A stretch of DNA of 64,000 nucleotides from an uncultured Candidatus Saccharibacteria bacterium (GTDB taxonomy: Bacteria > Patescibacteriota > Minisyncoccia > Phycocordibacterales > UBA12088), in NCBI GenBank assembly GCA_964459635.1, contig CAYWMQ010000001.1, positions 8,342-72,341 on the forward strand. Direction: 5' to 3'. The notes beneath the pieces are model-generated. The model was not told where the DNA came from. It made no database searches and saw only the letters and a program-made list of their open reading frames with translations. The position numbers and the translations under genes were made by a program. Positions within the stretch are counted from its first letter, which is position 1; every line of letters starts with the position of its first letter. This document shows positions 6,561 to 49,200 of the stretch, one piece after another.

Positions 6561-6597
6561 GCACAAGGTCGACCCTCGCCAGAAGACGTTCACACGG

Positions 6598-6622
6598 ACC
6601 CGGTGCTCTATGAGCACCGGGT
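6598..6622 (+). terminator. hairpin ACCCGGTGCTC-tat-GAGCACCGGGT after the small gene
   Basis: Perfect 11-bp stem with a 3-nt loop, 38 nt after the stop. No T-tract. Confidence 0.4.
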
Positions 6623-6673
6623 CTTACTGCGCGTGGTTGCTACACTAGCTTTCGTACTGATGGTTTTGCGTCT

Positions 6674-7681: not shown

Positions 7682-7791
7682 AAAGTCAAAAGTCAAAATG
7701 CAAAAATCCAAGTCAAAATTCAAAAGCTGCGGCACTCGTACCTCTCACTTTTTACTTGCGCTTTTAACTTCTACCTTTTGAATTTTGACTT
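7681..7791 (+). promoter_or_regulatory. AAAAGTC-type heptamer array and a perfect 17-bp inverted repeat between the ABC ATPase and permease genes
   Basis: aaaagtc aaaagtc aaaatgc aaaaatc ... aaaattc at 7681-7728. AAGTCAAAATTCAAAAG (7710-7726) and its exact reverse complement CTTTTGAATTTTGACTT (7775-7791) are separated by 48 nt. The right arm ends 10 nt before the permease ATG 7802 and covers the alternative TTG start 7778. Confidence 0.5.
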
Positions 7792-9302: not shown

Positions 9303-9334
9303 CGGCCGACCCATTGGGTCGGCCGTTTCGTGTT
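9303..9334 (+). terminator. rho-independent terminator CGGCCGACCC-att-GGGTCGGCCG followed by TTTCGTGTT
   Basis: Perfect 10-bp GC stem with a 3-nt loop and a T-rich tail, 8 nt after the stop of 9133..9294. Confidence 0.65.
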
Positions 9335-24415: not shown

Positions 24416-24474
24416 GGTGTGTATGAGTGCGCGTACACACGTGGCACAGTGGTATACTTGAGGTGCATCTTGCT

Positions 24475-27400: not shown

Positions 27401-30312
27401 GTGGCGTGGTACACGGTGTGCCACGCACGGTTGAAGCGTGGAACAACAACGCGCACCGTGCATGGGATTATGCTACCGGGGAGACACCCGTCGCGCCCGC
27501 GGGAGCTGCCGGAGCCGCACCTGTGGAAGCGCCTCGCAGTGGAGCGACGCAAGCACCCGAGACACCACCCGACAGTGCGCATGTCGAAGTGCCGCCGGCC
27601 GGTGCGCCGCGCGCTCAGGCGGAGATCACGGGCCAAGGTGCATCAGTACAGGAGTTTGAGCGTATTCGAAAGGAAGGGTACGTCATTACGGAGGAACATG
27701 GCGCTCGCGTGTACACGCATCCGGATGGCATGCGCTACCATGTCTTTGGGAATGGGAACATGTACGCAGAGACCCTGAATGAGTCACCCTCTGCAGGGGA
27801 TGGGCACGCGGGTATCTCAAATTCACCAAAGGTCACTCTGGACAATCTGCCACCGGAGTTACGTGAGCATTTGGTGCGGCTCGTGCGTGTGCAAGTCTCA
27901 GAAGCTATTGAGGCGTACGGCGGCGGCATTGGTGCGGAAGAGCAAAAGCTGGTCCTGGAGGAGCTCGCCAAGGACGGTCTTACCGCGGACGATGCCTCGC
28001 GTGAGGCGGTGATGGAAGCACTGGCGCGAGTAAAAAACGGCATAGGAGACCGCCCGCGTACGTTTGAGCCCGGGCCTTCACGCGGCGCTGCGCCTGTCGC
28101 GCCCGATGAGGTACGTCCACTCGGCACGCGTACGGCGGCGGCGCCCGAAGCGCTGCATACGCGCGCCGCAGCGTCCAGCGTGCAAGAGGCATACGGTGTT
28201 GCGGATACAACAGGGAGCCGGAGCCAGCGCATCCTCAATAATTTGGAAAGCATGCGGCACACCTTTGCAGGTACGGGTTTCAAGGAAGGGGTAGCAACCA
28301 CAGCCTCACTTGACTACATTCTTAAGCAGGTCGAGTTACCTAAGAGTTCCATTTTCCCGCGCGCGAGCTTCCGCGGCGCATGGGGTGCGGTGGCGGACTT
28401 CCCGGCCTCACGAATATTCGACAGCCGGCCGGGCGCAGAGCTCCTGCTGCCCAACAGACAATGGGTCGCTATGAACCCGACCACAGAGGCTATGACCCGC
28501 AACTTCTTCGAGCAGGTGGATCATCGTGTGACCGGCGGTCGCCTCTTGCATAATGCCGACTACCTACGCGGCCGCAGTCTGGGCGATGTCATGCATGACT
28601 TCGAGCGCATACAGAAGGGGCAGGTACGCGTTGAGGACGTTCTGCGCCAGCGGATGGGGCGTGGTGCGGCTGTTGCAGCGGAGGCCGACACACGCGTACG
28701 CGACACCATGCCGCACGAACAGCCTGCAGCTGCGCGCGTACCGGAGGTGCAAGAGTCGCGTTCGGGCTTTGTGCCGGGGGAGCGCACGGCGGCGGCGAGC
28801 GCCACACTCTTGCGCAAGCTTGATGCGCTCGCCGGCCCGGATGTCTCGCATGTACGCGTGGCGGACCTTCTCGCACGTGAGCCGCAGACCCTCAGTGAGC
28901 AGGTGGCGCGCCAGTATGTTGTTGGCTTCCAAAACAATGGCATTACTGCAGATCCGAACCTGTCATTCAAGGAGTACCTCACACGTGCGGTTGACGAGTA
29001 TCTCGAACGCGGTTATTCGCCGCAAGAGCTTGAAATAGCAATGGACTGGCTTGAGGAGGAGTACGGCAAGGCATCGGCTCCGCGTTCGCGAGCAAAGTAT
29101 GCCGTGTATGATGCATCTGAGCCGGTGCCTTTCCGGCGCGCGGGTATTGAGGCTCCAGGCACGGTGAGTCCCGAGGCTATGCGTGCGTCAGAAGCGCTCA
29201 CGGGCCGATTGCGTGCGCTCGGTTCCGTAGAGCTCGGGCGCGACTCCGTGAGCGACGTGTACGCGGGCGACAACAGGGTGAGCGAGCTACTTGGCTCGAA
29301 GCCGCGCAGTGCGGGGGACTACGTGGCACAACGCTTCGTGCAGCAGATGAAGGCGCAAGGCTTTGTCGCAGATGAGCGTTTGCCCTTTGAGCAGTACGCG
29401 CGTGAGGTTATTGACCAGTATCTGAAAAAAGGAGGCACGGAGAACAACATTGCAATGCTTACCGGTATGTTCGAAGACGAAGAACTCGTGCAGCGCGCTC
29501 TTGCGCGCTCCGCGAGCGAGTCGTATCACGAAGCGGATGAAGCGCGCGAAGATGTGGCATACACACGCGAGCGCGGGAGTCGTCGCTCAGGTGGGCAAAC
29601 GTCGCGGACGGGCGTGCGTGGTACGTACCACGGCGAGGCGGGTCCGTTAGAGGCGGATGGTCGTTTTAAGGTGGAGTTTCGCTCGCGTAACCCGCAAGCT
29701 CCGGAACTGCGCATCAGGTCGGGAGGACGTTATTATACACAAGCAGTTGAACGTGTTGAGGCATCTGCTCGGGGTAGTACTCAGTACAAAGGCTGGCTTG
29801 AGTACCCTGGGTCTGCGCTCGAACTTATGAATAGGGACGCGTCCTTTGCCAAGCACGTGTACGACGAACTGCGTGAAGCGGGTTGGGAGGGTCGTACGGG
29901 CAACCGATCGTCATGGAAAGTCTACCAGCTGCCCGATGCTGAAACACTGGCGCACACGTCTCCCCGTGAGCTTCTGGTGAGTGCGGAGGTGCAGGAACTG
30001 GAGGGTATGCGGAAGCAGGCACGTTATCTGGAGCACCACGATAGGGATCTGTACGGCAGATCACGCATTAACATGGGTCGCGATGGTAAGCTTCGCGGCA
30101 GCGGCTCGCTCTTTGAAGAGCGCGAGGGGTCGCGCAACAGAGGCCGGATTGACTCGCATGAGCGACAAGCGCGGCGTGAAACAGACGCTCGCAGTAGGCG
30201 GGAGTTTAGCCGCAAGATGGACAAGATACGCCGCGATACTGACAAGTTGCGGAGCGATCGCAAGACGATGCGCGACATACAGCGCATGAAGCAAGATCAG
30301 CGCAGACATTAA
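24475..30312 (+). CDS. large coiled-coil protein with a central glycine-zipper membrane segment and an Arg-rich C-terminus (1945 aa from this start)
   Basis: ATG 24475 with GAGGTG 9 nt upstream and TATACT at 24453-24458; the track's GTG 24427 would lie upstream of that -10. The N-terminal ~850 aa are E/R/K/A-rich coiled-coil. TM segments GGGAVGLVVGGGAGAAAYMAARAGAGFFGGALMAGAV and AMALTGAAAFAAGASAG. Two ~75-aa internal repeats. The C-terminus reads RRETDARSRREFSRKMDKIRRDTDKLRSDRK. Confidence 0.65.
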   Translation: MGERAYIKTEDDPLAGKTVLQPYVSEEVLRALSEEELLNQANAARVALGMAPLSDTADAVQADPQRKEVIILALERNLAKFHETQQGESGDAEFAYVYDPRNGRGEWLSREQALRAGFTERAASADDADALRARAGELLEQANLLRSSLVGNQSKQKARLDVAIVRLQGLLEERPSDIAALEERVRDLEEEVRRQEQPGENPTSDVQNKNPAIRVNERDVAASEEKAAVERQEAELRDLSKRFERFEVGTVSGDQNYSRDYDRAEHLLFELEKRLEGSSEQVRQSEIRHLERLIVKLERMQASAKAGPGAPEPAPTPAQEADPHTAERARARVYEEVAMEILARLPEGNDWEKAKKRFFTDDWERITREVGSESTTPDLKRLIVEYDHLRAYEWNLKEPSSGAAHTEAAEPTPAPTPEADPHASERAEAQQLEEEAQQLIATLPTGYDAADLSKQGAEKSWEALVRKSGSQAKTPDLTVLRDALEELRRLVAHTPPKAPESPHAGFKIEKGGKAEITRLENYVALRLAELPVTTDEERAHHDVLIAEWKHLKEQYGSHAAKPEYEHLKDFVLAHLKLGGVTTEAELDAVLGVVSDKSALGTETEAERITALAQEREENHLRTREAYGAEIREARERYQGYRKELLDAEEAYLNAVTAHREGTKYFKGLRNRLLRNTEGQEQIAKLERDMRAAQVEFETKLNEMKAERAERLGLTHRLLEMSYQRRLGGENDPAAHPERRKAQREAKFAALHEALVLRSTSTMLELAQGIGGKEELDIAVASRVGVRREDLSEGTRDASGVLTPEAQVRATARKEHWAELEKAVGERKDPSRLVRTYKAGMRYYRSIPKEKQLAIRMLGGGAVGLVVGGGAGAAAYMAARAGAGFFGGALMAGAVSKKLFGATERHIARSKKGILESDTMTLADKQHEYMAMRRRERNMKRGAMALTGAAAFAAGASAGQAVNEVAMSGLSLESIGRGVVHGVPRTVEAWNNNAHRAWDYATGETPVAPAGAAGAAPVEAPRSGATQAPETPPDSAHVEVPPAGAPRAQAEITGQGASVQEFERIRKEGYVITEEHGARVYTHPDGMRYHVFGNGNMYAETLNESPSAGDGHAGISNSPKVTLDNLPPELREHLVRLVRVQVSEAIEAYGGGIGAEEQKLVLEELAKDGLTADDASREAVMEALARVKNGIGDRPRTFEPGPSRGAAPVAPDEVRPLGTRTAAAPEALHTRAAASSVQEAYGVADTTGSRSQRILNNLESMRHTFAGTGFKEGVATTASLDYILKQVELPKSSIFPRASFRGAWGAVADFPASRIFDSRPGAELLLPNRQWVAMNPTTEAMTRNFFEQVDHRVTGGRLLHNADYLRGRSLGDVMHDFERIQKGQVRVEDVLRQRMGRGAAVAAEADTRVRDTMPHEQPAAARVPEVQESRSGFVPGERTAAASATLLRKLDALAGPDVSHVRVADLLAREPQTLSEQVARQYVVGFQNNGITADPNLSFKEYLTRAVDEYLERGYSPQELEIAMDWLEEEYGKASAPRSRAKYAVYDASEPVPFRRAGIEAPGTVSPEAMRASEALTGRLRALGSVELGRDSVSDVYAGDNRVSELLGSKPRSAGDYVAQRFVQQMKAQGFVADERLPFEQYAREVIDQYLKKGGTENNIAMLTGMFEDEELVQRALARSASESYHEADEAREDVAYTRERGSRRSGGQTSRTGVRGTYHGEAGPLEADGRFKVEFRSRNPQAPELRIRSGGRYYTQAVERVEASARGSTQYKGWLEYPGSALELMNRDASFAKHVYDELREAGWEGRTGNRSSWKVYQLPDAETLAHTSPRELLVSAEVQELEGMRKQARYLEHHDRDLYGRSRINMGRDGKLRGSGSLFEEREGSRNRGRIDSHERQARRETDARSRREFSRKMDKIRRDTDKLRSDRKTMRDIQRMKQDQRRH

Positions 30313-35092: not shown

Positions 35093-36200
35093 CACGTGCG
35101 TAGCACGTGTTGTGCAAGAGTGCTCCATCCTTTGGGGACGTTGTGGCGTAGACGGCATTGTGCGATGCAGGGGTGATCTCGCGCGGGCAGTGTCACTCGC
35201 TCGCGTACCGCTTCAAGCACAGGGCCTGGGCATAAAAGTGCAGCCGTCAACCATTGAAGAGCGTCTTGATCCGGGCGGCTCGGTGGAGGGTGTGCTCACT
35301 ATCACCAACGAGAGCGATGCTCCACAGGTCTACAAGATAGGTACGCGCGACGTAACAGGCATGGAGCTCTCCGGCAGACCGAACTTTTCGGATAAACCGG
35401 GCGGTGAAGACCCGTATGCTGCGTCTGCGTGGGTACGCCCGCAGAAAGACAGCGTTCCTCTTGCGGCATGGGAGGCGGTAGAGGTGCCGTACCGTATTGA
35501 GGTACCGACTGACGCGAGTCCCGGCGGGTACTTTGCGGCTATCTTCGTGACGCGCGAGGCAGATGGTATTGCCGAGTCGGGAGCGAGTGTTGGCTTTCAC
35601 GTGGCGGCGCTCGTAAACCTACGCGTCAACGGCGAGGTGCGTGAGGACTTGGTGCTGAAGGAGTTTAGTACCGGGCGCGCTGTACATACCGACCTCGAGG
35701 TGGAATTTACCGCTCGCATGGAAAACACCGGCACCGTACATGAGCGGCCCGTGGGTATCATTACCATTGCGGACATGTTCGGCAAAGAAGCGGGGAAGGT
35801 GATGCTTAACGAAAACGAGGGGGCGATACTGCCACGTTCCGAGCGTCTATTTGATACTACGTGGAAGGGAGAGGGCTTCCACGTGGGCCGGTACACGGCA
35901 CTTCTCAGCGTGACATATGGGAATGACGCGAAGCAAACGGTCACACGTTCGACTACGTTTTGGATTGTACCGCTCCGGGACACGGCAGCCTTTGCGGGAG
36001 CTATTGTAGTGGCACTTGCGCTCATCTTGCTTGGTATGCGGGCCTATGTACGCCGGCAGCTTCGCCGTGCGGGCTACGATGCACAGACCGTACGTATCCG
36101 TGAGCAGAGCTCTTTTGCGGCAAAGCTTAGTCGTGTGCTTGTCTGGCTCGCGGCCCTACTCGCACTCATGGTCGTTGCAGTGGTGGTGTTCTTCGCGTAG
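35019..36200 (+). CDS. membrane-anchored surface protein, paralog 3 of 3 (start uncertain)
   Basis: Shares the motif SPGGYFAAIFV and the C-terminal TM AFAGAIVVALALILLGM followed by YVRRQL, plus a second C-terminal TM. No convincing signal peptide lies upstream of the conserved ...PLQAQG position. The track start overlaps paralog 2 by 73 nt. Confidence 0.45.
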   Translation: MCSRTSAHTKWRCWIRKHRSQTHRNTCVARVVQECSILWGRCGVDGIVRCRGDLARAVSLARVPLQAQGLGIKVQPSTIEERLDPGGSVEGVLTITNESDAPQVYKIGTRDVTGMELSGRPNFSDKPGGEDPYAASAWVRPQKDSVPLAAWEAVEVPYRIEVPTDASPGGYFAAIFVTREADGIAESGASVGFHVAALVNLRVNGEVREDLVLKEFSTGRAVHTDLEVEFTARMENTGTVHERPVGIITIADMFGKEAGKVMLNENEGAILPRSERLFDTTWKGEGFHVGRYTALLSVTYGNDAKQTVTRSTTFWIVPLRDTAAFAGAIVVALALILLGMRAYVRRQLRRAGYDAQTVRIREQSSFAAKLSRVLVWLAALLALMVVAVVVFFA

Positions 36201-36315
36201 ACCCCCTGTGCACGTGTGTGTTGCGCGCAGACATCAGCCTTGATACGGTAGAGGTACCGATCGTGCATGTCGCCTTCACACTCTAAACTCTACACTATCC
36301 ACTAAGTACCCAGGT

Positions 36316-36675
36316 ATGCTCTGGCGCTACACGCGACGCGATACAAAAGTCCTGCTGCTTGCAACGCTGCTCACCGTGAGCGGCTACGCGTACCTTTTGG
36401 CGGACAGCTGGAAGCATGAGCTTGTGCAGAGCATGCAGACAGCCCAGGTAGTGGGGGTGTTTGCGTCCGTGGCACCCAACGAAGCGAACACGCGCATGGC
36501 CGCTCTTGACGCGCGCGAGGCGGAATTACAGGCGCGCGAGTCTTTGCTTTTCGAAGAGATAACGCGTCGCGACCGGACCATGCTCGTCATCGTCACAGCG
36601 ATAGGCGCGGTGCTCTTGGTTCTCATTTTGCTTAATTTCTACCTTGACCAAAAGCGGCGGATGTCGCTGGCGTGA
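36316..36675 (+). CDS. small membrane protein (119 aa, 2 TM with a coiled-coil middle)
   Basis: TM segments LLLATLLTVSGYAYLL and MLVIVTAIGAVLLVLILLNFYL. Preceded by the heptamer array at 36279-36299. Confidence 0.45.
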   Translation: MLWRYTRRDTKVLLLATLLTVSGYAYLLADSWKHELVQSMQTAQVVGVFASVAPNEANTRMAALDAREAELQARESLLFEEITRRDRTMLVIVTAIGAVLLVLILLNFYLDQKRRMSLA

Positions 36676-36833
36676 AAACGAAAGGCACCTGCCGATAGCA
36701 GGAAAGTTAAAAGTGCATTACACGCGTTAACGTCGGCGGTCGTCTAACTGGACCTACACGGTCTAAGGCATTTTGGTGGCGTGAAGTCATGGCAAACCGT
36801 CTATGGCTTTCACTCCCGTGTGCTGTTACGTAG

Positions 36834-36861
36834 CGTGTTACGTAGCATGCTACGTAACACG
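36834..36861. promoter_or_regulatory. perfect 28-bp palindrome CGTGTTACGTAGCATGCTACGTAACACG
   Basis: Self-complementary across 28 nt. It has a flanking direct repeat GTTACGTAG (36825-36833 and 36837-36845) and lies in a ~500-bp region with no credible ORF. Confidence 0.5.
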
Positions 36862-36929
36862 CTGTGCGGTAGGTGTTCAGCCGCCCGATTACGCAGCCAA
36901 GCTGTGCGAGTTCTGTTCGGGCGCGCCCC

Positions 36930-36954
36930 ATGTTCGACTTACGAAGTCGAACAT
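36930..36954 (+). other. hairpin ATGTTCGAC-ttacgaa-GTCGAACAT
   Basis: Perfect 9-bp stem with a 7-nt loop in the same non-coding region. It does not form a tRNA cloverleaf. Confidence 0.4.
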
Positions 36955-37049
36955 ACGAGCACACCGACTCAAATGCACCTATAAAATTTCTACTTTTGTG
37001 GACTACGCGCGCTGCTATCTGGCTACTCGGTGTAGTCACGTTTGGATTT

Positions 37050-37094
37050 CCTGCCTGCCGGCAGGCAGGTACATTTTAACTTTTGACTTTTGTT
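37050..37094 (+). terminator. perfect 20-bp GC palindrome CCTGCCTGCCGGCAGGCAGG followed by T-rich heptamers (ttttaac ttttgac ttttgtt)
   Basis: Terminator-like: a GC hairpin followed by TACATTTTAACTTTTGACTTTTGTT. It could end an unannotated transcript from 36676-37050, or act as an operator upstream of the FGE gene. Confidence 0.4.
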
Positions 37095-37178
37095 ACCCTC
37101 CCCCTCCAGGTGGATAAGCTGTTCATGGTGTAGCTCCACTCGCGGTACAATATAGGTACGGATCATATCCGCCCCCGA

Positions 37179-38039
37179 ATGATCCAGTCACTCACACGGA
37201 CCGTTGCGGTCTCTGTGTGCTCCGTTATTTTGACGACGCTTGCAGTGAATGCAACGGACAGCATCAATGTACCCGCCGGTAGCATGCTCGCGGGCGTGTT
37301 TGGGGCGAGTACCTCTGTGGACACCGGTCCGTGTCCCAAAGATATGCGCCTGGTGAAGCAAGCACTCGTTCCCTTTTGTGTAGATGCGTACGAGGCGGCG
37401 GCAGGTGACAGTTGCCCGTATGAGACGCCCCGAAGCGTTGACGAGACGAACAAGAACCTTTCGGGGGCTTCATGTGCACCGGTATCCAAGGCCGGCACCA
37501 CACCATGGCGTTTTGTGGACGTTGTCCAAGCGCAAGCGGCCTGCTCCAGAGCCGGCAAGAGGCTGCTGACTGCAGACGAATGGTACAAAGCCTCACTTGG
37601 AACCCCCGACACGTCGTCAGAGTTTACCGGTGAGCAGTGCAACGTGGCGCGCAACCTCGCCGATGGTGTCGCCCCTACGGGAAGCGCCGCCCGGTGCGTA
37701 TCCGATGCCGGTGCATACGACATGGTGGGCAACGTGTGGGAGTGGGTGGATGGCGCGGTACGTGATGGTGTGTTCGAGGGACGTTCTTTGCCACGGAGCG
37801 GGTACGTGCAGGGCGCGGATACGAGCGGCATAGCGTACGAAACAGCGAGCGGCGCGCAAGCTGCGTTCGGCAGAGACCGCTTCTGGTCGGACAGCATCGG
37901 CACGATGGGGCTGATGCGTGGCGGCTACTTCGACAGCGAAGGTGATGCGGGTGTATTCAGCATATACGCTGCCAGTCCCCCCACCTTTGCCGGGGAGGCG
38001 GTAGGCTTCCGCTGTGCCACTGCACCGAAGAACCCGTAA
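37179..38039 (+). CDS. formylglycine-generating enzyme family protein (FGE-sulfatase / SUMF1 domain), secreted
   Basis: Signal peptide MIQSLTRTVAVSVCSVILTTLAVNA. Hallmark motifs YDMVGNVWEWVDG, RGGYFDSE and a C-terminal GFRCATAP. A possible -10 TACAAT lies at 37146-37151. Confidence 0.8.
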   Translation: MIQSLTRTVAVSVCSVILTTLAVNATDSINVPAGSMLAGVFGASTSVDTGPCPKDMRLVKQALVPFCVDAYEAAAGDSCPYETPRSVDETNKNLSGASCAPVSKAGTTPWRFVDVVQAQAACSRAGKRLLTADEWYKASLGTPDTSSEFTGEQCNVARNLADGVAPTGSAARCVSDAGAYDMVGNVWEWVDGAVRDGVFEGRSLPRSGYVQGADTSGIAYETASGAQAAFGRDRFWSDSIGTMGLMRGGYFDSEGDAGVFSIYAASPPTFAGEAVGFRCATAPKNP

Positions 38040-38124
38040 GTCACATATGGAAGAACGAGAAAGTCCACCCCCTGTAATAGAGGAGCATGCGCAGCGAGAC
38101 GCATCGACCTTGTGTGTACGTAAG

Positions 38125-40020
38125 ATGGCAGGCCGTCACTTTTCGTTGCGCTTAGGCAGTCGACAGCCTTTTTTGTCTTTTGTCTTTTGTCTTTTGTATC
38201 TCGTGCTCCTGTTCTCTTTTCTCTATACGTCGCACTCGGCATTTGCCACAAGCTATCTCTCTCGCATTTCAGACCTTATCTCCACCAGTGCGCCGGGCGC
38301 GGCTGCGAACCACACGCTTCGTTTCACTATAGCTCAAGCGATACCGCCCAACGGTGCCATTGAAGTGCTTTTCAACCGCGGGGGTTTCACTATCCCCGGG
38401 GCACTTAATTTTACCGATGTGGACCTTGGTTTTTCGGCAGTATCCGGGGGCCCCTATACCGAGCGTCCGCTATCTTCCGTGCAGACGGGCGGTACGGACC
38501 GGGTGGTGGTCACAAGCGGTAGCGCGGGCAAGATACGGTTCGACCTCAACACGTCGGTAGGTATTGCGGCAGGCAGCGAGTTGCGCATCAAGATAGGCAC
38601 GAACGCCACGTTCGGTACGGTGGGTGATCAGCGCATTCTGCTCCCTACGGCCACCACATCTCACCCGGTGACTGTGTACACATACGATGCGGCTGATGCC
38701 GAGCTTGACTACGGCGAAACGCGTATAGCGGTAGTGGAGCAAGTGACAGCGGGCCCGGTAGATACCGATGACGTCACGCCGCCCGTGGTGCTTGCGGCAT
38801 ACCCTTCCGGGCTGCTTCAAGTGGGAACGAGGGCTGTACAGATGTGGGTAGTTACCGATGAGCTTACGGCGTGCAGATGGGCGACCTCAAGTATGGCGTA
38901 CGCAAGCATGCCGTACTCTTTCACCTCCACAAGCACATTCGGGCTTGCGTACTGGAATTTTGCCACATACGGCGGACTTGAAGATGATACTGAGTACAAT
39001 GCGTACATCCGCTGCGTTGACTTTCGTTCTAACGAAATAGATCCCGATTACATCCTTTCCTTTACCGTAGGTATTACGCCCGGTAGTGCAAGCTCAACAG
39101 CCACCACGACCGGCACAGGTACCGGCACAGGTACGGGCACATCGACCGGCACATCGACCGGCACCGGTACCGGCACCGGTACCGGAGGAGGACCGTCGGG
39201 TTCCGGCTCGGGCAATGGCCCCAATGGCGGCGATGGGGCAGGGTCGGGCGGGGGTGGGTCCGGGCAGTCGGGCTCCGGTGACAAGCTGCCCCAGGCGGAT
39301 GTGCAGGTGTCGGGATGGGCGTACCCGGGCTCTACGGTAACACTGCTTCGCGACGGGGCGATAGTGGCTACGCAGGCCGCGGGAGGCGGCGGCGAGTTCC
39401 TGCACCTTACGGAAGGTATCGACCGCGGCATATACTCCTTTGCCGTGTATGCGACCGACTCAAAGGGAACACGTAGTGCGACATACGCCACTACGCTCGG
39501 CCTGCGTTCGAATACGCTCAACAAGCTTGCGAACATTATGCTCCCGCCCACCGTCTCGGTCGTGGCCGCTTCCGTAGACCCGGGTAAGCCTGTCGAGGTG
39601 AGCGGTTACTCCGCGCCAAGTGCCAAAGTCACCGCATGGCTGCGGCCCAGGCTTGCGGTGGTATCGGCGGCGGACGTGGTGGCGAGTACCACCGCGCTCG
39701 CGAACGGCATATACACGCTCAGCATTCCGACCACGGGGCTCACACAGGGTACGTACGAGCTCGTTGCGCAAGCTGCTCATGCGAACGGCACCGTGCAGAG
39801 CGACAAGAGCGCGCGGCTTGCCGTAGGACTTGGCGTTCAAGTGACACAAAACACGGGCTGCAAAGACGGCGACCTCAACTGCGACGGCTCAGTGAACCTC
39901 ATAGACTTTTCGATCCTTCTTTTCAACTGGAACACCGCGAGCACCGTTGCAGACATAAACAAAGACGGGACCGTCTCGCTGCCGGACTTCTCGATACTGC
40001 TCTTCAATTGGACGGGGTAG
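38125..40020 (+). CDS. secreted surface protein with a Thr/Gly-rich linker and a C-terminal type-I dockerin
   Basis: ATG 38125 gives MAGRHFSLRLGSRQPFLSFVFCLLYLVLLFSFLYTSHSAFA. Beta-rich domains, then the linker TTGTGTGTGTGTSTGTSTGTGTGTGTGGGPSGSGSGNGPNGGDGAGSGGGGSG, then more Ig-like domains. The final 55 aa, DLNCDGSVNLIDFSILLFNWN and DINKDGTVSLPDFSILLFNWTG, form two dockerin calcium-binding repeats. Confidence 0.7.
   Translation: MAGRHFSLRLGSRQPFLSFVFCLLYLVLLFSFLYTSHSAFATSYLSRISDLISTSAPGAAANHTLRFTIAQAIPPNGAIEVLFNRGGFTIPGALNFTDVDLGFSAVSGGPYTERPLSSVQTGGTDRVVVTSGSAGKIRFDLNTSVGIAAGSELRIKIGTNATFGTVGDQRILLPTATTSHPVTVYTYDAADAELDYGETRIAVVEQVTAGPVDTDDVTPPVVLAAYPSGLLQVGTRAVQMWVVTDELTACRWATSSMAYASMPYSFTSTSTFGLAYWNFATYGGLEDDTEYNAYIRCVDFRSNEIDPDYILSFTVGITPGSASSTATTTGTGTGTGTGTSTGTSTGTGTGTGTGGGPSGSGSGNGPNGGDGAGSGGGGSGQSGSGDKLPQADVQVSGWAYPGSTVTLLRDGAIVATQAAGGGGEFLHLTEGIDRGIYSFAVYATDSKGTRSATYATTLGLRSNTLNKLANIMLPPTVSVVAASVDPGKPVEVSGYSAPSAKVTAWLRPRLAVVSAADVVASTTALANGIYTLSIPTTGLTQGTYELVAQAAHANGTVQSDKSARLAVGLGVQVTQNTGCKDGDLNCDGSVNLIDFSILLFNWNTASTVADINKDGTVSLPDFSILLFNWTG
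38168..38197 (+). repeat. heptanucleotide tandem repeat (CTTTTGT)3 plus a variant unit, inside the signal-peptide coding region of the dockerin protein
   Basis: cttttttgt cttttgt cttttgt cttttgt; rotated, this is (TTTTGTC)n, matching the intergenic TTTTGAC arrays. Covers codons 15-25 of the gene. Confidence 0.75.
39109..39192 (+). repeat. 12-nt tandem repeat (ACCGGCACAGGT-like, 7 units) encoding the TGTG linker
   Basis: accggcacaggt x2, acgggcacatcg, accggcacatcg, accggcaccggt x2, accggaggagga. In-frame microsatellite. Confidence 0.7.
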
Positions 40021-40287: not shown

Positions 40288-40794
40288 ATGGCTACATTCA
40301 TGGATAAGCTCAAAGGCCGCGGCCTTACCGAAAAGGGCGGAAGTCTCTCCGCCGGCAGTGCCGCCGATCATGCGGGTACTCCCGCGATGGGCCACCAAGA
40401 GGTGGTCCCGAGCCGCGCACTCCAGCTTCCCGTAGACGTGTTCCAATCGGACGACGAGATCATCATATACGCACAGCTTGCCGGTATGGACATGCATACG
40501 CTCGACGTTTCCATAGCGGGAGATAATGACGTGGTGGCCATCCAAGGCACAAGCTTGCGCCCCGAGCATCTCATGCATGATGCGCATGCGGGCAGAAATG
40601 GGGACTATACGCTCGAAGAGTGCCACTGGGGTGATTTTTACCGCCAGATCATCTTGCCCGATGAAATTGATCCGGAGCGTGCGGAAGCCAAAACGAAAGA
40701 CGGCGTGCTTGCGCTACGTCTGCCGCTGGCAGGCAAGGCTGTCAAAGGCCGCAAACTGAACATCGTGCGTGCGGATGAACAGCCGCAGCAATAG
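40288..40794 (+). CDS. Hsp20/alpha-crystallin family small heat-shock protein
   Basis: Alpha-crystallin domain from VDVFQSDDEIIIYAQLAGMDMHTLDVSIAGDNDVVAIQGT to GDFYRQIILPDEIDPERAEAKTKDGVLALRLP. TATACT lies upstream at about 40220. Confidence 0.8.
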   Translation: MATFMDKLKGRGLTEKGGSLSAGSAADHAGTPAMGHQEVVPSRALQLPVDVFQSDDEIIIYAQLAGMDMHTLDVSIAGDNDVVAIQGTSLRPEHLMHDAHAGRNGDYTLEECHWGDFYRQIILPDEIDPERAEAKTKDGVLALRLPLAGKAVKGRKLNIVRADEQPQQ

Positions 40795-40810
40795 CGCACG
40801 AGCTCGCGCT

Positions 40811-42346
40811 ATGCTCGCGTCGAATATACACCGTGTTGTTCATAAAAATGCCGTAGCGCAGGCGTATACCCGCGTCAAAGTTTTTGTGGCGCTTGTTTTT
40901 TTTCCGTTTTTCTTGTTTCTTGTTTCTTGTTTCTTGTTTTCTACCTCCGCCCACGCCGCCTCCTACTCCTTTTCGCCCGCGTCCGGCTCCTACGAGGTCG
41001 GCAAAACGTTCACCGTGTCCGTCATGGTGGACCCGGGCACCGATGCGGTGAACACGGGCGATGGAGCGCTCTCGTATGACACCGCCAAGCTCACCGCAGT
41101 GTCGGTGTCCAAAGAGGGTTCCGTTTTCAATCTTTGGGTGACCGAGCCCGCGCTTAACGCGGGAGCGGGCACGGTGACTTTTGCGGGTGGTGCCACCACG
41201 CCCTTTTCAGGCTCTAAGCGAGTCGTCACGGTTAGCTTCAAAGCGAAGGCGGAGGGCGCCGCCACGGTAAAACTTGATAAGGGTACGCTGCTGGCAGGCG
41301 CCGGTCAGAACGTGCTTGCCGGATCCCTGCCCACCGCTTCTTTCACCATCACTCCCGCTGCCGCCAAGCCGCCGGTGGAGGAAAAGCCGGACACCCCTGC
41401 ACCCGCAAAGCCGGCACGTGCGGTGAATATCCCCGTACCTGATGCTCCTGTTATCAAGAGTTCCACGCACAAAGAAGAGGGCACCTGGTACAACCAGAAC
41501 ACCGTGAAGCTCACGTGGGACCTACCCTACGGTGTGACCGGGCTCAAGAAGCTGTGGAGCGAGAAAGCCGACGCAGAGCCCACCGAAGTGCATGAGCCGC
41601 CCATACCCGACTGGACAAAGGAGAACGTGGCCGACGGTGTGTGGTATTTCCATGCCGCGTATAAGAACAGGGGCGGATGGGGAAGCTCCACCGCGTTCAA
41701 GGTGCAGATAGATACTACGCCACCGAAAGAGTTTACCGTGACGGGCACCGGAGGAGACCTTGCCGCGCAGCTTTCATGGGCTGCTGAGGATGAACTCTCC
41801 GGTGTGGTCGTATACCGCATAGCCGTAGACGACGGCCGGCCGCGGGATGTACAGCCCTCCGAGCTTATAGCCGGCGGATATACGCTCACCAACATAGATC
41901 CTGGCGAGCATAGCATTATCGTGACGGCTGTCGATGCTGCGGGCAACGAGCGGGAAGCTCGCACTAAGGTCACCGCGACAGGTGAGCTCCCTCCCGCAGA
42001 AGGAGCGCAGGAAGTTGAAACATCCGGCTTCGGAGCCATCTACTGGGTATCACTCATCTTCATGGCGCTTCTTGCAGGTGCGGTAACGCTCCTTGTGCTG
42101 GAGCGGCGCAAGCATCATGAGGAGCGCGAGCTCATCAAGCGTGAGGCGATGGAGGCGGGCGACAAGCTCATCAACGTATTCGGCGTGCTGCGCGACGAGA
42201 TAGAAGAGCGCGTGCTTGACCTCTCGCACAAGCCCAACATGACCGACAACGAGCGCGAGATATTGGAAGGCCTTAAAGATGCCCTGGATGTATCCGAAGA
42301 GCTTATCGACAAGGAGATAGAAGACATTCGCAAGCTCCTCAAGTAG
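40811..42346 (+). CDS. membrane-anchored protein with an N-terminal cohesin-like domain, Pro-rich linker, FN3/Ig-like domains, a C-terminal TM and a cytoplasmic coiled-coil tail
   Basis: ATG 40811 gives the signal peptide MLASNIHRVVHKNAVAQAYTRVKVFVALVFFPFFLFLVSCFLFSTSAHA. Cohesin-like beta-sandwich pattern SGSYEVGKTFTVSVMVDPGTDAVNTGDGALSYDTAKLTAVSV...GTVTFAGG...VVTVSFKAKAEGAATVKL. Pro-rich linker EEKPDTPAPAKP. TM AIYWVSLIFMALLAGAVTLLVL. The cohesin assignment comes from pattern recognition only. Confidence 0.55.
   Translation: MLASNIHRVVHKNAVAQAYTRVKVFVALVFFPFFLFLVSCFLFSTSAHAASYSFSPASGSYEVGKTFTVSVMVDPGTDAVNTGDGALSYDTAKLTAVSVSKEGSVFNLWVTEPALNAGAGTVTFAGGATTPFSGSKRVVTVSFKAKAEGAATVKLDKGTLLAGAGQNVLAGSLPTASFTITPAAAKPPVEEKPDTPAPAKPARAVNIPVPDAPVIKSSTHKEEGTWYNQNTVKLTWDLPYGVTGLKKLWSEKADAEPTEVHEPPIPDWTKENVADGVWYFHAAYKNRGGWGSSTAFKVQIDTTPPKEFTVTGTGGDLAAQLSWAAEDELSGVVVYRIAVDDGRPRDVQPSELIAGGYTLTNIDPGEHSIIVTAVDAAGNEREARTKVTATGELPPAEGAQEVETSGFGAIYWVSLIFMALLAGAVTLLVLERRKHHEERELIKREAMEAGDKLINVFGVLRDEIEERVLDLSHKPNMTDNEREILEGLKDALDVSEELIDKEIEDIRKLLK
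40912..40939 (+). repeat. perfect heptanucleotide tandem repeat (CTTGTTT)4, inside the signal-peptide coding region of the cohesin-like protein
   Basis: cttgttt x4 at 40912-40939, with one more unit at 40893-40899. Covers codons about 34-43. Confidence 0.8.
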
Positions 42347-43277: not shown

Positions 43278-46200
43278 GTGCAAAATATCGCGCCGGTCGA
43301 TGCGGTGATCGAAGGTGTCGAGTACGCAGAGCCTGCCCCGGGCGAGACAGCAAGCGGTGCAGAGGTTGCGCCGGAGGCGGAGCGGGGCGCGGATGCGAGT
43401 AGTGCCGAGACACGTGCACGCCAAGCGGACGAGGATGTGCGCGTGTGCACCGTACTGGATATCCCCTGTCACACCATACGCTACGACGGCTTTGATATCG
43501 GCAGCGTACTTGCGGATCACACAGTACGCGAGTACACACTGCGGCTTTCGCTTGGTGCGCGAGTCGAGGGCGAGAGCTTCACCCCGGACAAGCTGCTTGT
43601 GCGGTACATGAGCGCCGGCACATGGCACATTGCGGGAGAAGTGGTGATCGACCGCGAACTGTCCAACTTCGACAGCGGCGGGCACTTCTCATTCCCCTTG
43701 CCGGGGCTCACCGCGTGGGATTCCTTGGCCGACCTTGCTGTGGAGCTTGAGTACGTTCGGCATGGTACTGCAGAGACAGAGTTCTATGTCGACAGCGTGT
43801 GGGTGGATGCGCGGTATGCGGTGGTGGACGAGGGTGAGGAGCTGCAACTGGCACCGAACATCTTACCCGAGCTCGCGGTACTAGAAGACTCGCGGCGGCC
43901 GGACATGCTTCTTGTCGGGGATGAGCGCATTACTCTGCCGAGGACAGACGCCGTGCCGGGCGACGAGCTCGTCATTCGCAGCGACCATGACGTATACGAT
44001 GGCCTCACACGGGTGCGCTCGTACCTGTCCGTTACGAACCACGGAGACACGGAAATGTATGCGGATCTCGTAGTACGTACGGGCCGCCATGCGGAAGTAG
44101 TGGGACTGCGTGAGCGCGTGCGTGCGGTGCCGCAGTCTACGTTGGTGCCCGAGTACAGTGACGTGGCGTATTTGTGTGAAGGTGGGTGGCAGCCGGGTAG
44201 CATGTCGCAGGGTGTAGCCGCGCCATCTGACGTACCGGCAGATACAAACACGACAGACGGGGAAGAAGTGGAGGATGGCACAGCGAGTTCCTCCGTATCG
44301 ATGACGGAAGCGCTTGTGAGCGATGGTACGGGATCCGCCACCCTAGATGACGTCGGCCCGGACGCTTCAGGTGAGACTGCAGACTCGGAGGGCGAACCCT
44401 ATACCTGCGCCGCGACAGGTGAAGAGCGCGTGTGCTCGTCTCTCAATGATGACGAGACGAACTGCATCGCCGAAGAAGAACGCATTTCGACCACTGAAGA
44501 AGTTGCATACCGTGAAGGATGGCAGCCGGTCGGCCTGCGGCCCTACCGTGAGCGCACGAGTTTCTGGCAGCGAGTGCTTCGCAGCGAGGCCACCACTACG
44601 TCGGAGTTGCCCAATGCGGTGGAGGCAGAGGAGCGTGTACGGCTTGCTCCGCGGGAGACGCGCTTTTTCGCGGTGGACGTCGAAGTGGGTGTGCAGCGTG
44701 CGGGTGAGTTTGCTTTTGAGCTTCGCGCGGGCGACACGCATGCCGAGCGGCGCATGTGGTGGCGCAGCGGCTACTCGCGTCGTGTGCCTCTTACCGTTCC
44801 TCGTGTAGAATCCGAAGCGCCCGAGGTGCCACTCCTGTATCGCGTGCGGATAGAGGAGAATGACGTGCCCGGGTTTTTCACCACAGCGCGGTTGGACGGA
44901 GGGGATGTGCGTTTTTATGATGCGGCGCTTCGTCTTGAGTTACCGAGCAAAGTGGTCTCATTTTCATACGTTGAACAGGCGGCAGAGTACTTGGTGGAGC
45001 TTGGAGAAAGCTCGACACAGGCGAGCTCAAGCATCTTTGCATATTACGGTAACGATACGGTGATGGAAGCGTCACGGATGCGCGCCCCCTCGCAAACAGA
45101 TACGCCCATAGAGTACGTCCGTGCGGCGGAGTCCGCTACGGGGGCGCTCGTGTCTGTGACAAGTTTGCGTGACGGCAACACCATGCGTACGGGTGCGGGA
45201 GGTACGGAGGTGACACTCCACGAAGGTGAAGCGCTTGATATGGTGCTGGGAGAGGAGCCGCTCTATGCTCGCGGGCCCCTGCTCATACGCCCGGCCGACA
45301 CCGTGTCCTCAAAGGAAATGCGCGCGTTCGCGCTTACGCTTCCTGCGCATACCTACAGCCTCGCGCAAGGCACGTCGAGCCTCACGTATGTGGTAGAGCG
45401 CTACGCGAGCACAAGCCCCGAGCTGCGCTTTGGAGACGTGGAAGAGCTTCCGGTACCTGCGGTCGGTATTTTTGAGCCGCTCTCCTTTACCGACCAGCTC
45501 TCGCGCATACTGTACTTGCGCTCACTCACGGGCCCCGCGTACCACGACTTCCTTGAAGAGCTGCGCGACTTTGAGCTTGGCGATGAAGTGGTGTTTAAGC
45601 TCCGGTACAAGCCACAGCGGTGGGGTATCACGCGCTTTTTCCGCGGGCTTGTGCGCGACCGCCTCGCCACAGTGGCGGGCGTGCGTCTCCTGTACGGTGG
45701 GGAGGTCCTCACGGACGCGCGTTTTGACGTCTCGTACGGCGCAGAAGGCGAGTGGACCATCAAGCTTACAGAAGCGCCGAGAAGCCTCGTACCGGGCAAG
45801 TACTCCGTCGAGCTCACCATTGACGAAGTGGGCGAACTCTACACCGACACCTTTGATTTTTACTTCGGGGTGCTTGCCGTGAACACGCCGGAAGCCACGT
45901 ACGAGACGGGCAGCGTGGCCGAGTTCCACATGGCCGCGCTCGACGATCGTGGTGACACCATATGCGATGCGGAGCTGCGCTTGCTCATCACACCACCGTC
46001 CGGTCTGGCGGAGGAGATACCGGTAGAGCGCTCCACCACCTGCGGTCCCAACAACGTGACCGATGAGCCCGACTACCGCGCGCTCTATCGTTTGCGGGAG
46101 AGTGGCACGTACGACCTTGTTCTCACGCATGTAAACAGGGAGGGTGAGATAGTGCACCAGGTGCGCGATGCAGTGCACGCGGCCGAGCGCATGCCGTACA

Positions 46201-49200
46201 CGATAGAGCGGGCGGGCGCCACGCGCATCTGGCCGAAAGCGCCTTACACCATGCACCTCACCGTGTCGGCACGCGAGGACTGGAGCGGCACGTTGGTGGA
46301 GGCACTGCCGCGTGACTTCGTAGTGACGGACGCGGGCGGTGGGGAGTCGTCGGTGTGGGGCGGGGCCAAGCGTCTGAGTTGGGAGCTTACACTTGCGGCG
46401 GGTGAGTCGGTCACACTTTCGTACGAGTACGATGCGCCCGATCGCTCGCCGTACCTCTACCTCCTCGGGCCCGCGGAGCTTCGTGTGGGAGAGCAGGCTG
46501 CGTACCGCGAAGCAAAGAGCTGGAAGCTCGCCTCCGACGCGCTCGGGCAGTACACCGAGTCCTACGTCACCTTTACCCCAACGGTAAATGACACGTGGAC
46601 GACCATTGATCTCTCCGGTGCGCCGTACAGCATACCCGCGAACGCCATTCTTGAGATCGCGATCTCAAACGTGGACACAGGTAACGAGGCATACGGCGGT
46701 GTACGCAGCGGTGCCTCGACCACGCTCGACCGCCGTGTACGCATTCATGAGGCCGAGCCGTCAGGATCGGACGTCACCACCATGTTCGTACAAGCCAGTG
46801 CAACGTCAAGCATTCAGTACTACTCCGACGACACCAATGACATACGCTTCACCATTCTTGGCTACTGGACGAGCGGCACGTATACCGAGCGTTGGAGTGT
46901 GTTTGGACCTGCGGCGAACAACTGGACAACAGACTGGAACCTTAACACGTACGGCGTAGCCGACGGCAACGTGGCGGAAATCGTCTTAGTGAACACAGAT
47001 GGTTCAAATGAGTACGCTGCAGGCGTACGCACACTAGGCTCTACACTCACGCGCGAGGTGACCATACACGAGCCTGAACAGGGCGGCGTAGATACCGCTA
47101 CCATGCTTGTACGCGCGAGTACCTCCAACGCGACCATACGGTATCGTAACGCAAACGCTGCAATAGACTTCTACGTGGCAGGCTTCTTTTCGACGTTGCC
47201 CACCGGTCTTGAGTACTATGAGCGGTGGGACGACCTCGGCGGGCCAGCCAGCGCAAACACATGGACCGATCGCAGGCTCGACGACATCACCGTTCCCAAT
47301 TCAGCCATCGCAGATGTTGCGTATGCCAACACTGCTGCAGACGACACCACAGTCACGATCGGTGTGCGTGCCAACGGCTCGTCACTTTCCCGCACCGCCG
47401 AGCTGCACGAGGCTGAGGCGGGTGGCCAGAACCACGCGCGGTCGCACGTCACGGCAGGCAGTGATGCAAGCAGCACCATCGAATACTTCACCGGTAACAC
47501 CGCATACGACTCATTCCGGCTCGCCGGATACTGGGCAGCCGCCAACTATCCGCCCGATGCACCAACGCTCCACGACATACCGTTTGACAATGAAAAAACA
47601 GGGAGCTCGACACCGTACTTCGAGTTCACCGCATCCGACCCCGATGGCTCTAGCGATATCGTCTATCAGGTGCAGTGGGATGATGATGCCGACTTGGATG
47701 CTTCACCTCTGGGTGACCGCTCAAGTGATAATGAAACGGGCTGCTCTCCCAACTGTTTTGCCAATACCGTAAGCGGTGGCGACACCTCGCCTTTTACCGA
47801 GGGGCAGCGGATACGTTTCAGCATACAGAGTGCGCTCACGAGCGGTACCACATACTACTGGCGTGTACGTGCCAAAGACAGCAGCGGTTCGAACATCTAC
47901 TCCGAATGGACAGAGGTGCGTTCTTTCACATACGTGGCCGACACGAATCCGAAAGCGTGGTACCAAACAGCCGATGCGCAGTTTGACGGTGGTACTTTTT
48001 CGGGCGCGGAAACGTACGGTGCCAATTCCGTACGCCTTGCGACCACACCGCCCGTTGGCGCCATGGTGGCGTACGGCGAAGGTACGGTGGCGACACCACG
48101 GTACCAGATATGGAACGGTACCGCGTGGGGCGGAGAGCTCAGTGCGCAGAGCGCTACGGGTAGAATAAGCTGGACCGTACTGCGTGCCGCTCCCACACGG
48201 GATGAATATGTCCTGGTGACGCAAACCGCCACAGGCACCGTATTGGCGCAGGTGTACAACGGCACAAGCGGTACGTGGGGCAATGCACGCGTGATGACGA
48301 GCGCGGCCCCAAGCGCCGATCGTCGCGCGGTTGACGTGGCGTACCGCGGTCTTTCGGGTGAGGCGGTGGTGACGTACTGCGATGGTGATACCGACCCAAG
48401 CACGAACATTTGGAACGGCACGAACTGGTCCGCCACCACCACCCTCGACACGCAGTTCAACAGCGCCTGCAACTGGGTCGCGCTCGCTGCAAGTGACGCG
48501 AGCGATGAAATAGCGGCGGTCGTGCAAGCCGACAGTACGAACACCACCTCCGACTTTGAGGCGCAGATACTGACCGGTACTACGTGGGGCAACAGTTACA
48601 CCGGGGGCAGCAATACGGCGGGTGAAGAATTTCTTGAACGCATGTCGATCGCGTATGAGGAGTCGGGGACGGAAGCGGTGGTCGTCGTAGGCAACGGCGG
48701 CACCGCCAGTTTTGTCAGTGCGGTCTGGAACACTACGGCACAAACATGGACCGCAAACGCAAATCGCGGCACGCAAGACGACTTTGAGTGGTCTGAGTTT
48801 GCTGTGGATGATGGGTCCGACAACCTCGGTCTATGCTACATAGACGAGGACAACCAAGTCCACATCGCCAAGTGGAACGGCACGAGTAACACGTGGGACG
48901 CGTACGATGCCGCGGGTGACCAAATAGACACTGGCGGAAAGGCAAACGGTACAACCGACTACCACGCTCGGCCCGTCACGTGCCGGTACGAAACAACAGC
49001 AGGCCGCGATGGCTATCTCATGGTGCCGTACTCTGATACCACGAACGCGCGGTATCGTGTGTGGAGCACATCACTTACCGTTGAGCAGTCCATCTCGACC
49101 ATAGAGGATTCATGGACCGTGAGCAGTGCGCGCACGGGGGATGGCCTCATTCTCACGCTTTGGCGCGACGATACCAACGACCGCTTCGACTTCTCCTACT

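Follow-up and report, generated by a model that had tools for sequence, protein, structure and literature searches.

What is the function of a 503-nt spacer that is crowded with perfect palindromes and lies between two bacterial operons read in the same direction? The question is raised by positions 36676-37178 of a 64,000-nt stretch of DNA (hereafter the window, meaning the whole stretch) from contig CAYWMQ010000001.1, assigned to an uncultured Candidatus Saccharibacteria bacterium. The original prediction, made from the sequence alone, saw in this spacer either the gene of a ~350-nt small RNA (sRNA) ending at a GC-rich hairpin, or a group of operators at which a dimeric regulator would control the downstream surface-protein genes, the first of which encodes an FGE-sulfatase-like (FGE-like) protein. 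Here, we describe the anatomy of the spacer, the family to which its palindrome with TACGTA cores belongs, the distribution and genomic context of that family, and a constraint acting on its DNA within the gene miaA. On balance we lean, by a modest degree, towards a third answer: the spacer would be an inflated gap between two co-directional operons, carrying a copy of a Patescibacteria DNA palindrome that is read by a protein, and would be neither an sRNA gene nor a local operator. The Patescibacteria, or candidate phyla radiation (CPR), account for a large part of the diversity of bacteria. Hardly any of them have been cultured, and almost nothing is known of their cis-regulatory or chromosome-organizing DNA signals.

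The TACGTA palindrome family

The core of the family is represented in the window by the 24-mer TGTTACGTAGCATGCTACGTAACA (36836-36859). Searching for the palindrome elsewhere, as the original prediction had suggested, revealed that it belongs to a large family with multiple copies, consistent with a protein-binding site. The search was run as an exact match of the central 20-mer TTACGTAGCATGCTACGTAA against 596 Gb of sequence, with one genome per species; at least 117 stretches contain the 20-mer, compared to ~0.5 expected by chance, and the matches listed come from ~62 assemblies. The informative names among them are Moranbacteria/Moraniibacteriota, Paceibacterota, Falkowbacteria, Campbellbacteria, Kaiserbacteria, Staskawiczbacteria, Buchananbacteria, and "Patescibacteria group", and the matches listed all belong to Patescibacteria except for two and a few that are doubtfully named. 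The two exceptions, labelled Flavobacteriaceae and Oscillospiraceae, lack the full flanks of the family and are probably chance matches. Per assembly, the number of exact copies ranges from at least 1 to at least 10 among the matches listed. Third-party metagenome-assembled genomes (MAGs) labelled Bdellovibrionales, Gammaproteobacteria, Myxococcales, and Saccharibacteria also carry the motif (L005, L030, and L103 in CAZRQA01, L049-L119 in CAYMRZ01, and others). At least CAZRQA01 and CAYMRZ01, the two doubtfully labelled MAGs that are richest in sites, hold Moranbacteria-type miaA or prmC; their labels look wrong, and such MAG labels were treated as doubtful.

The sequences surrounding the motif are unrelated between loci. 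Immediately outside the 20-mer, TG on one side and CA on the other are found at 95-98% of the sites; T/A follows at outer position 3 (~77%) and pyrimidine/purine at position 4 (~75%), and beyond these positions complementarity is at the chance level of ~30%. The family consensus, of ~28 bp, is yTTGTTACGTAGCATGCTACGTAACAAr. Since the specificity spans ~28 bp and then stops, we are dealing with a sequence-specific palindrome and not with a generic stem. The 12-bp units that compose it were seen only as head-to-head pairs, isolated 12-mers being rare (~10 in 878 kb), and extra units are strictly in 12-bp phase, in a forward-forward-inverted or forward-inverted-inverted layout. The former, which is that of the window, is also present at L114, L020, L083, and L088. 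At two loci (L005, 1440-1510, and L024, 6750-6815), degenerate 12-nt periodic arrays (GTAC[A/T]TACGnAC...) run into a canonical palindrome, and growth of the unit array by tandem duplication is suggested.

No copies were found in 2.9 million IMG/VR viral contigs or in plasmids, and phage records gave chance-level matches only (E = 0.3). A phage or mobile origin was rejected on the basis of the IMG/VR result. A synthetic polylinker (SnaBI-SphI-SnaBI), i.e. vector contamination, was dismissed given the plasmid and phage results, and is also countered by the motif being read in frame within conserved genes whose sequences come from numerous independent studies. A literature text search retrieved no paper in which the 14-, 18- or 20-mer is printed; matches to the 12-mer were chance-like (primer-type) and came from unrelated animal and E. 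coli papers. Within the searchable literature, work on palindromes, parS or uptake sequences in Patescibacteria/Parcubacteria yielded no description of the motif. The TACGTA family appears to be an undescribed palindromic DNA motif of Parcubacteria-type lineages.

Genomic context, copies within genes, and possible readers

The gene context was analyzed with a crude ORF (open reading frame) model at 118 sites among the matches listed, of which 93 (79%) are intergenic. Gene 3' ends face the motif more often than gene 5' ends (104 vs 69), the motif lies between convergent pairs 19 times and between divergent pairs 5 times, and the median distance is 83 nt to facing stop codons and 154 nt to start codons. 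The 69 genes whose 5' end faces the motif contain 106 Pfam families, with at most two occurrences per family, and Pfam scans revealed no functional enrichment in 5'-facing, 3'-facing or overlapping genes. When the 663 ORFs located within 3 kb of 117 sites were clustered, no recurrent neighbour emerged, no family being found at more than 11 of the 117 loci, and a crude regular-expression search of the same ORFs detected no DnaA, ParA, ParB or RecA signature. Similarly, no transposase family is present among the Pfam families of the 198 flanking or overlapping ORFs, a look-up that covers the neighbours only. An association with tRNA genes was rejected, as a tRNA is present within 400 nt at 9 of the 117 sites vs ~5 expected. 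At L007, a large serine recombinase gene (90-1649) has its 5' end 19 bp from a motif copy, with a degenerate copy 3.5 kb away; it is the only recombinase-adjacent case noted.

The proximity to gene 3' ends could mean that the motif acts at the RNA level in 3' untranslated regions, as an mRNA-stabilizing hairpin, a processing mark or an element of factor-aided termination. Such a role is supported by the short median distance to the facing stop codon, by the 74 of 104 facing 3' ends that have no other terminator within 90 nt, by the stability of the hairpin, and by a compensatory change at an inner pair in miaA variants (see below). However, the 12 nt that follow the motif along the direction of transcription hold no T-tract (3.6 T vs 4.0 on the opposite side, background 30%, p = 0.37), and because of this lack of bias it does not qualify as a canonical terminator. 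The gene and the motif are separated by a canonical terminator in 19 cases, which places the motif beyond the end of the transcript. Moreover, extension of the stem past 28 bp is at chance level, a plain stem needs no strict sequence, and no Rfam family corresponds to the element. An RNA-level function is, in our estimation, distinctly unlikely.

About 12 sites are located within bona fide genes, where they nearly always read (L/V)LRSMLRN. Four copies occupy the same position in miaA (L012, L059, L082, and L103; (L/V)LRSMLRN(K)) and three the same position in prmC (L030, L042, and L110). When we compared them with the E. coli protein, the copies in miaA were seen to replace the native helix with the length unchanged. 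The Moranbacteria-type MiaA homologues contain the exact peptide in 10 of 120 cases, and LR[NS]xLRN in roughly half as judged by eye. Three peptide variants, LLRNKLRNK (encoded by TTGTTACGTAACAAGTTACGTAACAAA), VLRNMLRNK (GTGTTACGTAACATGTTACGTAACAAA), and VLRSKLRNK (GTGTTACGTAGCAAGCTACGTAACAAG), all retain two GYTACGTARC 10-mers 12 bp apart with identical codon use. Since the variants keep the pair of 10-mers and the same codons, it is the nucleotide pattern, and not the peptide, that is kept in miaA. In two of the three variants (L205 and L206), an inner G:C pair is changed to A:T in a compensatory manner, one half of the change being a synonymous Leu codon change. Judging from these sequences, the miaA site probably arose or was maintained in place, and not by insertion.

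These observations bear on whether the motif is a dispersed palindromic repeat, either selfish or neutral, that a trans-acting transposase or gene conversion would have spread and that would have built up at places where it is nearly harmless, such as 3' ends and tolerant parts of proteins; the spacer would then be a dumping ground for it. Repetitive extragenic palindromic (REP) sequences, bacterial interspersed mosaic elements (BIMEs), miniature inverted-repeat transposable elements (MITEs), and the Rickettsia palindromic element (RPE) would be the models. Like REP/BIME, the TACGTA motif is a short extragenic palindrome with several copies per genome, preferentially located past the 3' ends of genes and in convergent intergenic gaps; it has TG...CA ends and in-frame copies in genes, and the spacer is expanded in this lineage only. 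Furthermore, a second repeat family, that of the GC hairpin of the spacer, lies within 200 nt of the TACGTA motif in the window, L011, L056/L068, and L075, which is roughly the proximity that two intergenic-preferring elements give, and L093 contains a MITE-like pair (both are described below). REP sequences, however, are imperfect, species-specific palindromes found in hundreds of copies per genome and linked to REP-associated tyrosine transposases (RAYTs), whereas the TACGTA motif has at least 1-10 copies per genome, is identical across Patescibacteria lineages, and has no RAYT or transposase among the 663 neighbouring ORFs. RPE is also a palindromic repeat translated inside housekeeping genes, but it consists of 100-150-bp insertions that add a peptide segment, whereas in the TACGTA case 24 bp replace a native helix at unchanged length, the codon positions are the same in genomes that have diverged, and it is the DNA, not the peptide, that is kept. 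The features of a MITE or insertion sequence are likewise lacking: the 12-mers abut and form no separated pairs, the flanks are not direct repeats, no target-site duplications were seen, and the miaA copies add no length. Viral contigs and plasmids hold no copies either. We therefore regard a selfish or neutral repeat as unlikely.

Other known systems were compared with the family. The uptake sequences of Neisseria and Pasteurellaceae (DNA uptake sequence, DUS, and uptake signal sequence, USS) resemble it in being conserved across genera, in forming inverted pairs near gene ends, and in having a preferred frame at tolerant protein positions; these are sequences of 9-12 nt present about once per kb, whereas the TACGTA motif is 24-28 bp long, is present ~1 per 60 kb or less (a rough estimate), with one locus in the 64-kb window, and its single 12-mers are rare. 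The sites parS/ParB, matS/MatP, the Noc-binding site (NBS), and the SlmA-binding site (SBS) are similar in that they are near-invariant, few to tens in copy number, unrelated to promoters, tolerated in coding sequences, and deeply conserved. With respect to parS (TGTTnCACGTGAAACA), the TACGTA motif is longer, has another sequence, and is made of 12-bp units; its sites are not clustered around parAB or dnaA, according to the crude signature test, and no parS-like site (up to 2 mismatches) was found in 1.25 Mb of compared sequence. The 28-bp span can also be read as the 11-6-11 arrangement of a Xer dif site (yTTGTTACGTA GCATGC TACGTAACAAr). Nevertheless, dif is present once per replicon and has an asymmetric centre, in contrast to the TACGTA motif, which has at least 10 loci in one assembly, a centre that is symmetric throughout, and additional 12-bp units in phase. 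The family is filed under none of REP, uptake sequences, parS or dif because in each comparison it lacks a defining feature, namely copy number and species specificity, density, sequence and proximity to parAB, and single copy, respectively. A LexA (SOS) box is improbable from the genomic context, as the 3'-end bias speaks against it and the crude signature search detected no RecA near any site; LexA work in Patescibacteria is grouped by a citing paper with studies of a direct-repeat LexA motif (PMC7739468).

A DNA site bound by a protein is favoured because of the 28-bp limit of the motif, its invariance across phyla, the retention of the DNA inside genes, the avoidance of promoters, and the lack of marks of mobile DNA. 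The TACGTA motif would then be a double-stranded DNA site bound by a conserved protein, likely as one dimer or as two dimers sitting on two TACGTA cores 12 bp apart, and its action may be at the chromosome level or at transcription-unit boundaries, e.g. as an architectural site or a roadblock. More specifically, we tentatively propose, as a possibility rather than an expectation, that it is the cis site of an undescribed Parcubacteria-specific DNA-binding system, either a chromosome-organizing or segregation factor or a boundary roadblock. Several points weigh against a protein-read site. Clustering of the ORFs within 3 kb revealed no candidate gene for a binding protein near the sites, and the bias towards 3' ends could be no more than a sign of which places tolerate insertions or sites. 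The sites were ascertained by an exact 20-mer, such that core conservation, copy numbers, and taxonomic range are biased or lower bounds. The exact peptide is present in only 10 of the 120 MiaA sequences, indicating that individual sites turn over. Finally, the compensatory G:C to A:T change fits a structural role, symmetry being common to a dimer site, a DNA cruciform, and an RNA hairpin.

If a protein does read the palindrome, its 28-bp specificity would have stayed constant across whole candidate phyla, and the motif would be a lineage-defining signature comparable to parS or uptake sequences. A motif of 24-28 bp that is letter-perfect across several candidate phyla and kept inside miaA would have to have a conserved reader, and this protein, once found, would provide an experimental handle on CPR chromosome biology. 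The motif could also be used as a taxon marker for binning.

The spacer and its syntenic counterparts

The spacer and the genes on either side of it contain the following features (positions in the window).

36316-36675, + strand: last gene of the upstream operon, 119 aa (ORF list; no Pfam family)
36676-37095, no strand assigned: lineage-specific spacer expansion of ~400 nt, without counterpart in syntenic relatives
36824-36859, no strand assigned: three in-phase 12-bp units, forward-forward-inverted, of the Patescibacteria palindrome family
36832-36863, no strand assigned: 32-bp perfect palindrome, the family core plus a symmetric, locus-specific extension of 4 bp per side
36858-36924, + strand: 27-nt direct repeat, two copies, 70% identical, 40 nt apart (weak)
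36930-36954, no strand assigned: hairpin (stem 11 bp, loop 3 nt), unique to the locus
37050-37069, no strand assigned: GC palindrome CCTGCCTGCCGGCAGGCAGG, 20 bp, second recurrent hairpin family
37050-37095, + strand: terminator-like unit, GC hairpin plus T-rich tail TACATTTTAACTTTTGACTTTTG (consensus scan)
37144-37178, + strand: promoter and leader block GGTACAAT, with GTACGG, a small hairpin, and CCCCCGA before the ATG (alignment A4)
37179-38039, + strand: FGE-sulfatase-like gene, first of the downstream surface-protein cluster (Pfam PF03781, E = 5e-13)

The structures listed in the original prediction are all present, with small corrections. What had been described as a 28-bp palindrome with a flanking direct repeat is indeed a palindrome, of 32 bp (36832-36863, the letters AGCGTGTTACGTAGCA and TGCTACGTAACACGCT in succession), overlapping three contiguous in-phase 12-bp units: TGTTACGTAGCG (36824-36835), TGTTACGTAGCA (36836-36847), and TGCTACGTAACA (36848-36859), the third being the reverse complement of the second. 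The hairpin that follows has a stem of 11 bp and not 9 bp. TACAAT (37146-37151) is a -10-like element conserved at six syntenic loci, and lies 27 nt, instead of 28 nt, before the ATG at 37179. The terminator-like character given to the 20-bp GC palindrome and its T-rich tail agrees with the consensus scan and with the terminator hairpin found at the same place in relatives. The description of the region as ORF-free was too strict, since mechanical ORFs of up to 110 aa exist, two of which, on the minus strand, are called by a public gene caller; nevertheless, none has a Pfam match, so small proteins were rejected, and this DNA is absent from all syntenic relatives. The 27-nt direct repeat hints at a local duplication, bearing in mind that families of just two copies frequently turn out to be chance matches.

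By chance, a perfect palindrome of 32 bp should occur ~1.5e-5 times per 64 kb (our own arithmetic), and 3 of the ~8 long perfect hairpin palindromes of the window sit within this 500-bp spacer; the clustering is not due to chance. As RNA, the 32-bp palindrome forms a 14-bp stem of -26.6 kcal/mol, and the hairpin at 36930-36954, which has no second copy in the 1.25 Mb compared, folds with -13.5 kcal/mol (z = -5.4). On the + strand, the whole spacer folds better than every shuffle (z = -3.9), which, with the terminator-like end at 37050-37095, is what a ~350-nt structured RNA ending at the GC hairpin would be expected to show. The strong fold is, however, accounted for by three independent palindromes. 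No promoter-like site is present on the + strand in 36000-37600; the Rfam scan gave no match in the window at the gathering score and, for the spacer at E <= 10, only chance miRNA/snoRNA hairpins; and scanning the window for tRNA/tmRNA genes gave nothing of relevance. As the segment is in addition missing from the five syntenic relatives, we give the sRNA gene a very slim chance.

The syntenic comparison included five relatives (L121 and L201-L204), alignment A4 comprising these and the window. All five share the order of ~390-, ~355-, and ~119-aa genes, spacer, FGE-like gene, ~610-aa gene, and HSP20, with an orthologue of the 119-aa gene directly upstream of the FGE-like gene (112-124 aa in L201-L204; also in L121). 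Their spacers are 82-202 nt long, compared to 503 nt in the window, and have in common only a terminator-type hairpin, which four of them (L121, L201, L203, and L204) have at the corresponding position ahead of the promoter block, and the promoter/leader block, whose GTACA and T positions are invariant in 6 of 6 syntenic sequences. Since the five relatives have no counterpart of the palindrome-bearing segment of ~400 nt, this segment is specific to the lineage of the window; this speaks against both a conserved sRNA gene and an operator dedicated to the downstream operon. In the collections searched, the best homologue of the FGE-like protein shows 60% identity and the next NadE homologue 66%, homologues named Falkowbacteria are 41-42% identical to the FGE-like protein, and there were no close relatives for a covariation analysis of the spacer. 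The window is placed in the Patescibacteria on the strength of these Falkowbacteria homologues, the TACGTA motif, and its group of syntenic loci.

The operator model, in which a dimeric regulator bound at the palindromes would control the operon of FGE-like, dockerin, and cohesin surface proteins, is in line with palindromic multi-unit sites upstream of an operon that has a conserved promoter 280 nt downstream of the motif. However, a terminator-like hairpin stands in the 287 nt between the motif and the -10 element, the same operon lacks the motif in the five relatives, and no TACGTA motif was found in 372 kb around FGE-like homologues. Family-wide, divergent promoter regions are avoided (5 vs 19 convergent), gene 3' ends are preferred, and the neighbours have no common function. 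Control of the surface-protein genes by a regulator at these palindromes, as originally suggested, retains a slim chance in our view.

The comparison instead fits an inflated spacer with a protein-read palindrome. In this lineage, the spacer between the two co-directional operons would have swelled from ~100-200 nt to 503 nt. Its functional, conserved parts would be those at its 3' end: the GC hairpin and tail, which would end the upstream operon, and the GGTACAAT block, which would drive the FGE-like operon. The extra ~400 nt would be lineage-specific DNA that has swollen the untranslated 3' region of the upstream operon and that includes copies of two palindromes recurring in Patescibacteria and one unique hairpin. 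The GC hairpin with its T-rich tail is probably the terminator of the upstream operon, to judge from a consensus scan that credits it with a stem of 8 pairs, a loop of 4 nt, and a tail containing 5 T. However, the T-run begins only after a gap of 4 nt (TACA) past the stem, and the hairpin is positioned 375 nt past the stop codon. The palindrome cluster of the window itself would thus be neither a local switch nor an sRNA gene, and the locus would be an ordinary one.

The contiguity of the spacer was considered separately. Logan assemblies from at least 3 sequencing runs (L001, L002, and L003) start or end within the 32-bp palindrome; both flanks are present in these independent assemblies, with contigs broken inside the palindrome, so that contiguity is unproven by Logan alone. 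The flanks are truly adjacent, given that the order of the 119-aa gene and the FGE-like gene is kept in the five relatives. The palindrome is a systematic contig breakpoint for k-mer assemblers, and the motif should be a predictable one for assemblers based on de Bruijn graphs.

The GC palindrome and other features of the window

The GC palindrome of the spacer belongs to a second recurrent family. Exact copies of CCTGCCTGCCGGCAGGCAGG were found at L011:1933, L061:492 (in a 23S-5S spacer), and L111:1627, and near copies, with 1-3 mismatches that are often symmetric, at seven more loci (~9 copies in 814 kb of AT-rich Patescibacteria loci). A near-identical hairpin, CCTGCCTGCCGGTAGGCAGG, at L093:5330 is the first stem of a match to the Rfam family Acido-Lenti-1 (RF01687; 40.9 bits vs a gathering score of 37), a family described from Acidobacteria and Lentisphaerae. 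In this Patescibacteria-type MAG, two inverted RF01687 matches (40.9 and 50.4 bits) flank a long hairpin at 5304-5520 of L093, and the pair looks like a MITE. The GC palindrome of the window lacks the second hairpin and the linker of Acido-Lenti-1, and gave no match to this family even at E <= 10.

Further perfect palindromes of 25-34 bp are present in the window at 190-223, 7646-7674, 6597-6623, and 9303-9325; the first two have no other copy in the compared loci. Heptamers rich in A/T (AAAAGTC or AAGTTTA, with their complements) are arrayed in inverted blocks around terminator-type hairpins at 7681-7790 and 37074-37095 of the window and at 2314-2440 of L204. In the leader of the FGE-like gene, CCCCCGA directly precedes the ATG in the window and in all five relatives, with no Shine-Dalgarno-like purine run. 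A diversity-generating retroelement around this gene, whose product has a C-type-lectin fold, was rejected because blastn of 36601-38100 against the whole window revealed no template repeat.

Dockerin- and cohesin-bearing proteins are encoded near the FGE-like gene (38014-40020 and 40769-42346), which suggests cell-surface assembly. The window also contains giant ORFs of 3357 aa (14342-24415), 1961 aa (24427-30312), and 6482 aa (43278-62726). Taken with the cohesin/dockerin pair and the homologues named Falkowbacteria, these ORFs make the window look like part of a Patescibacteria (CPR) genome.

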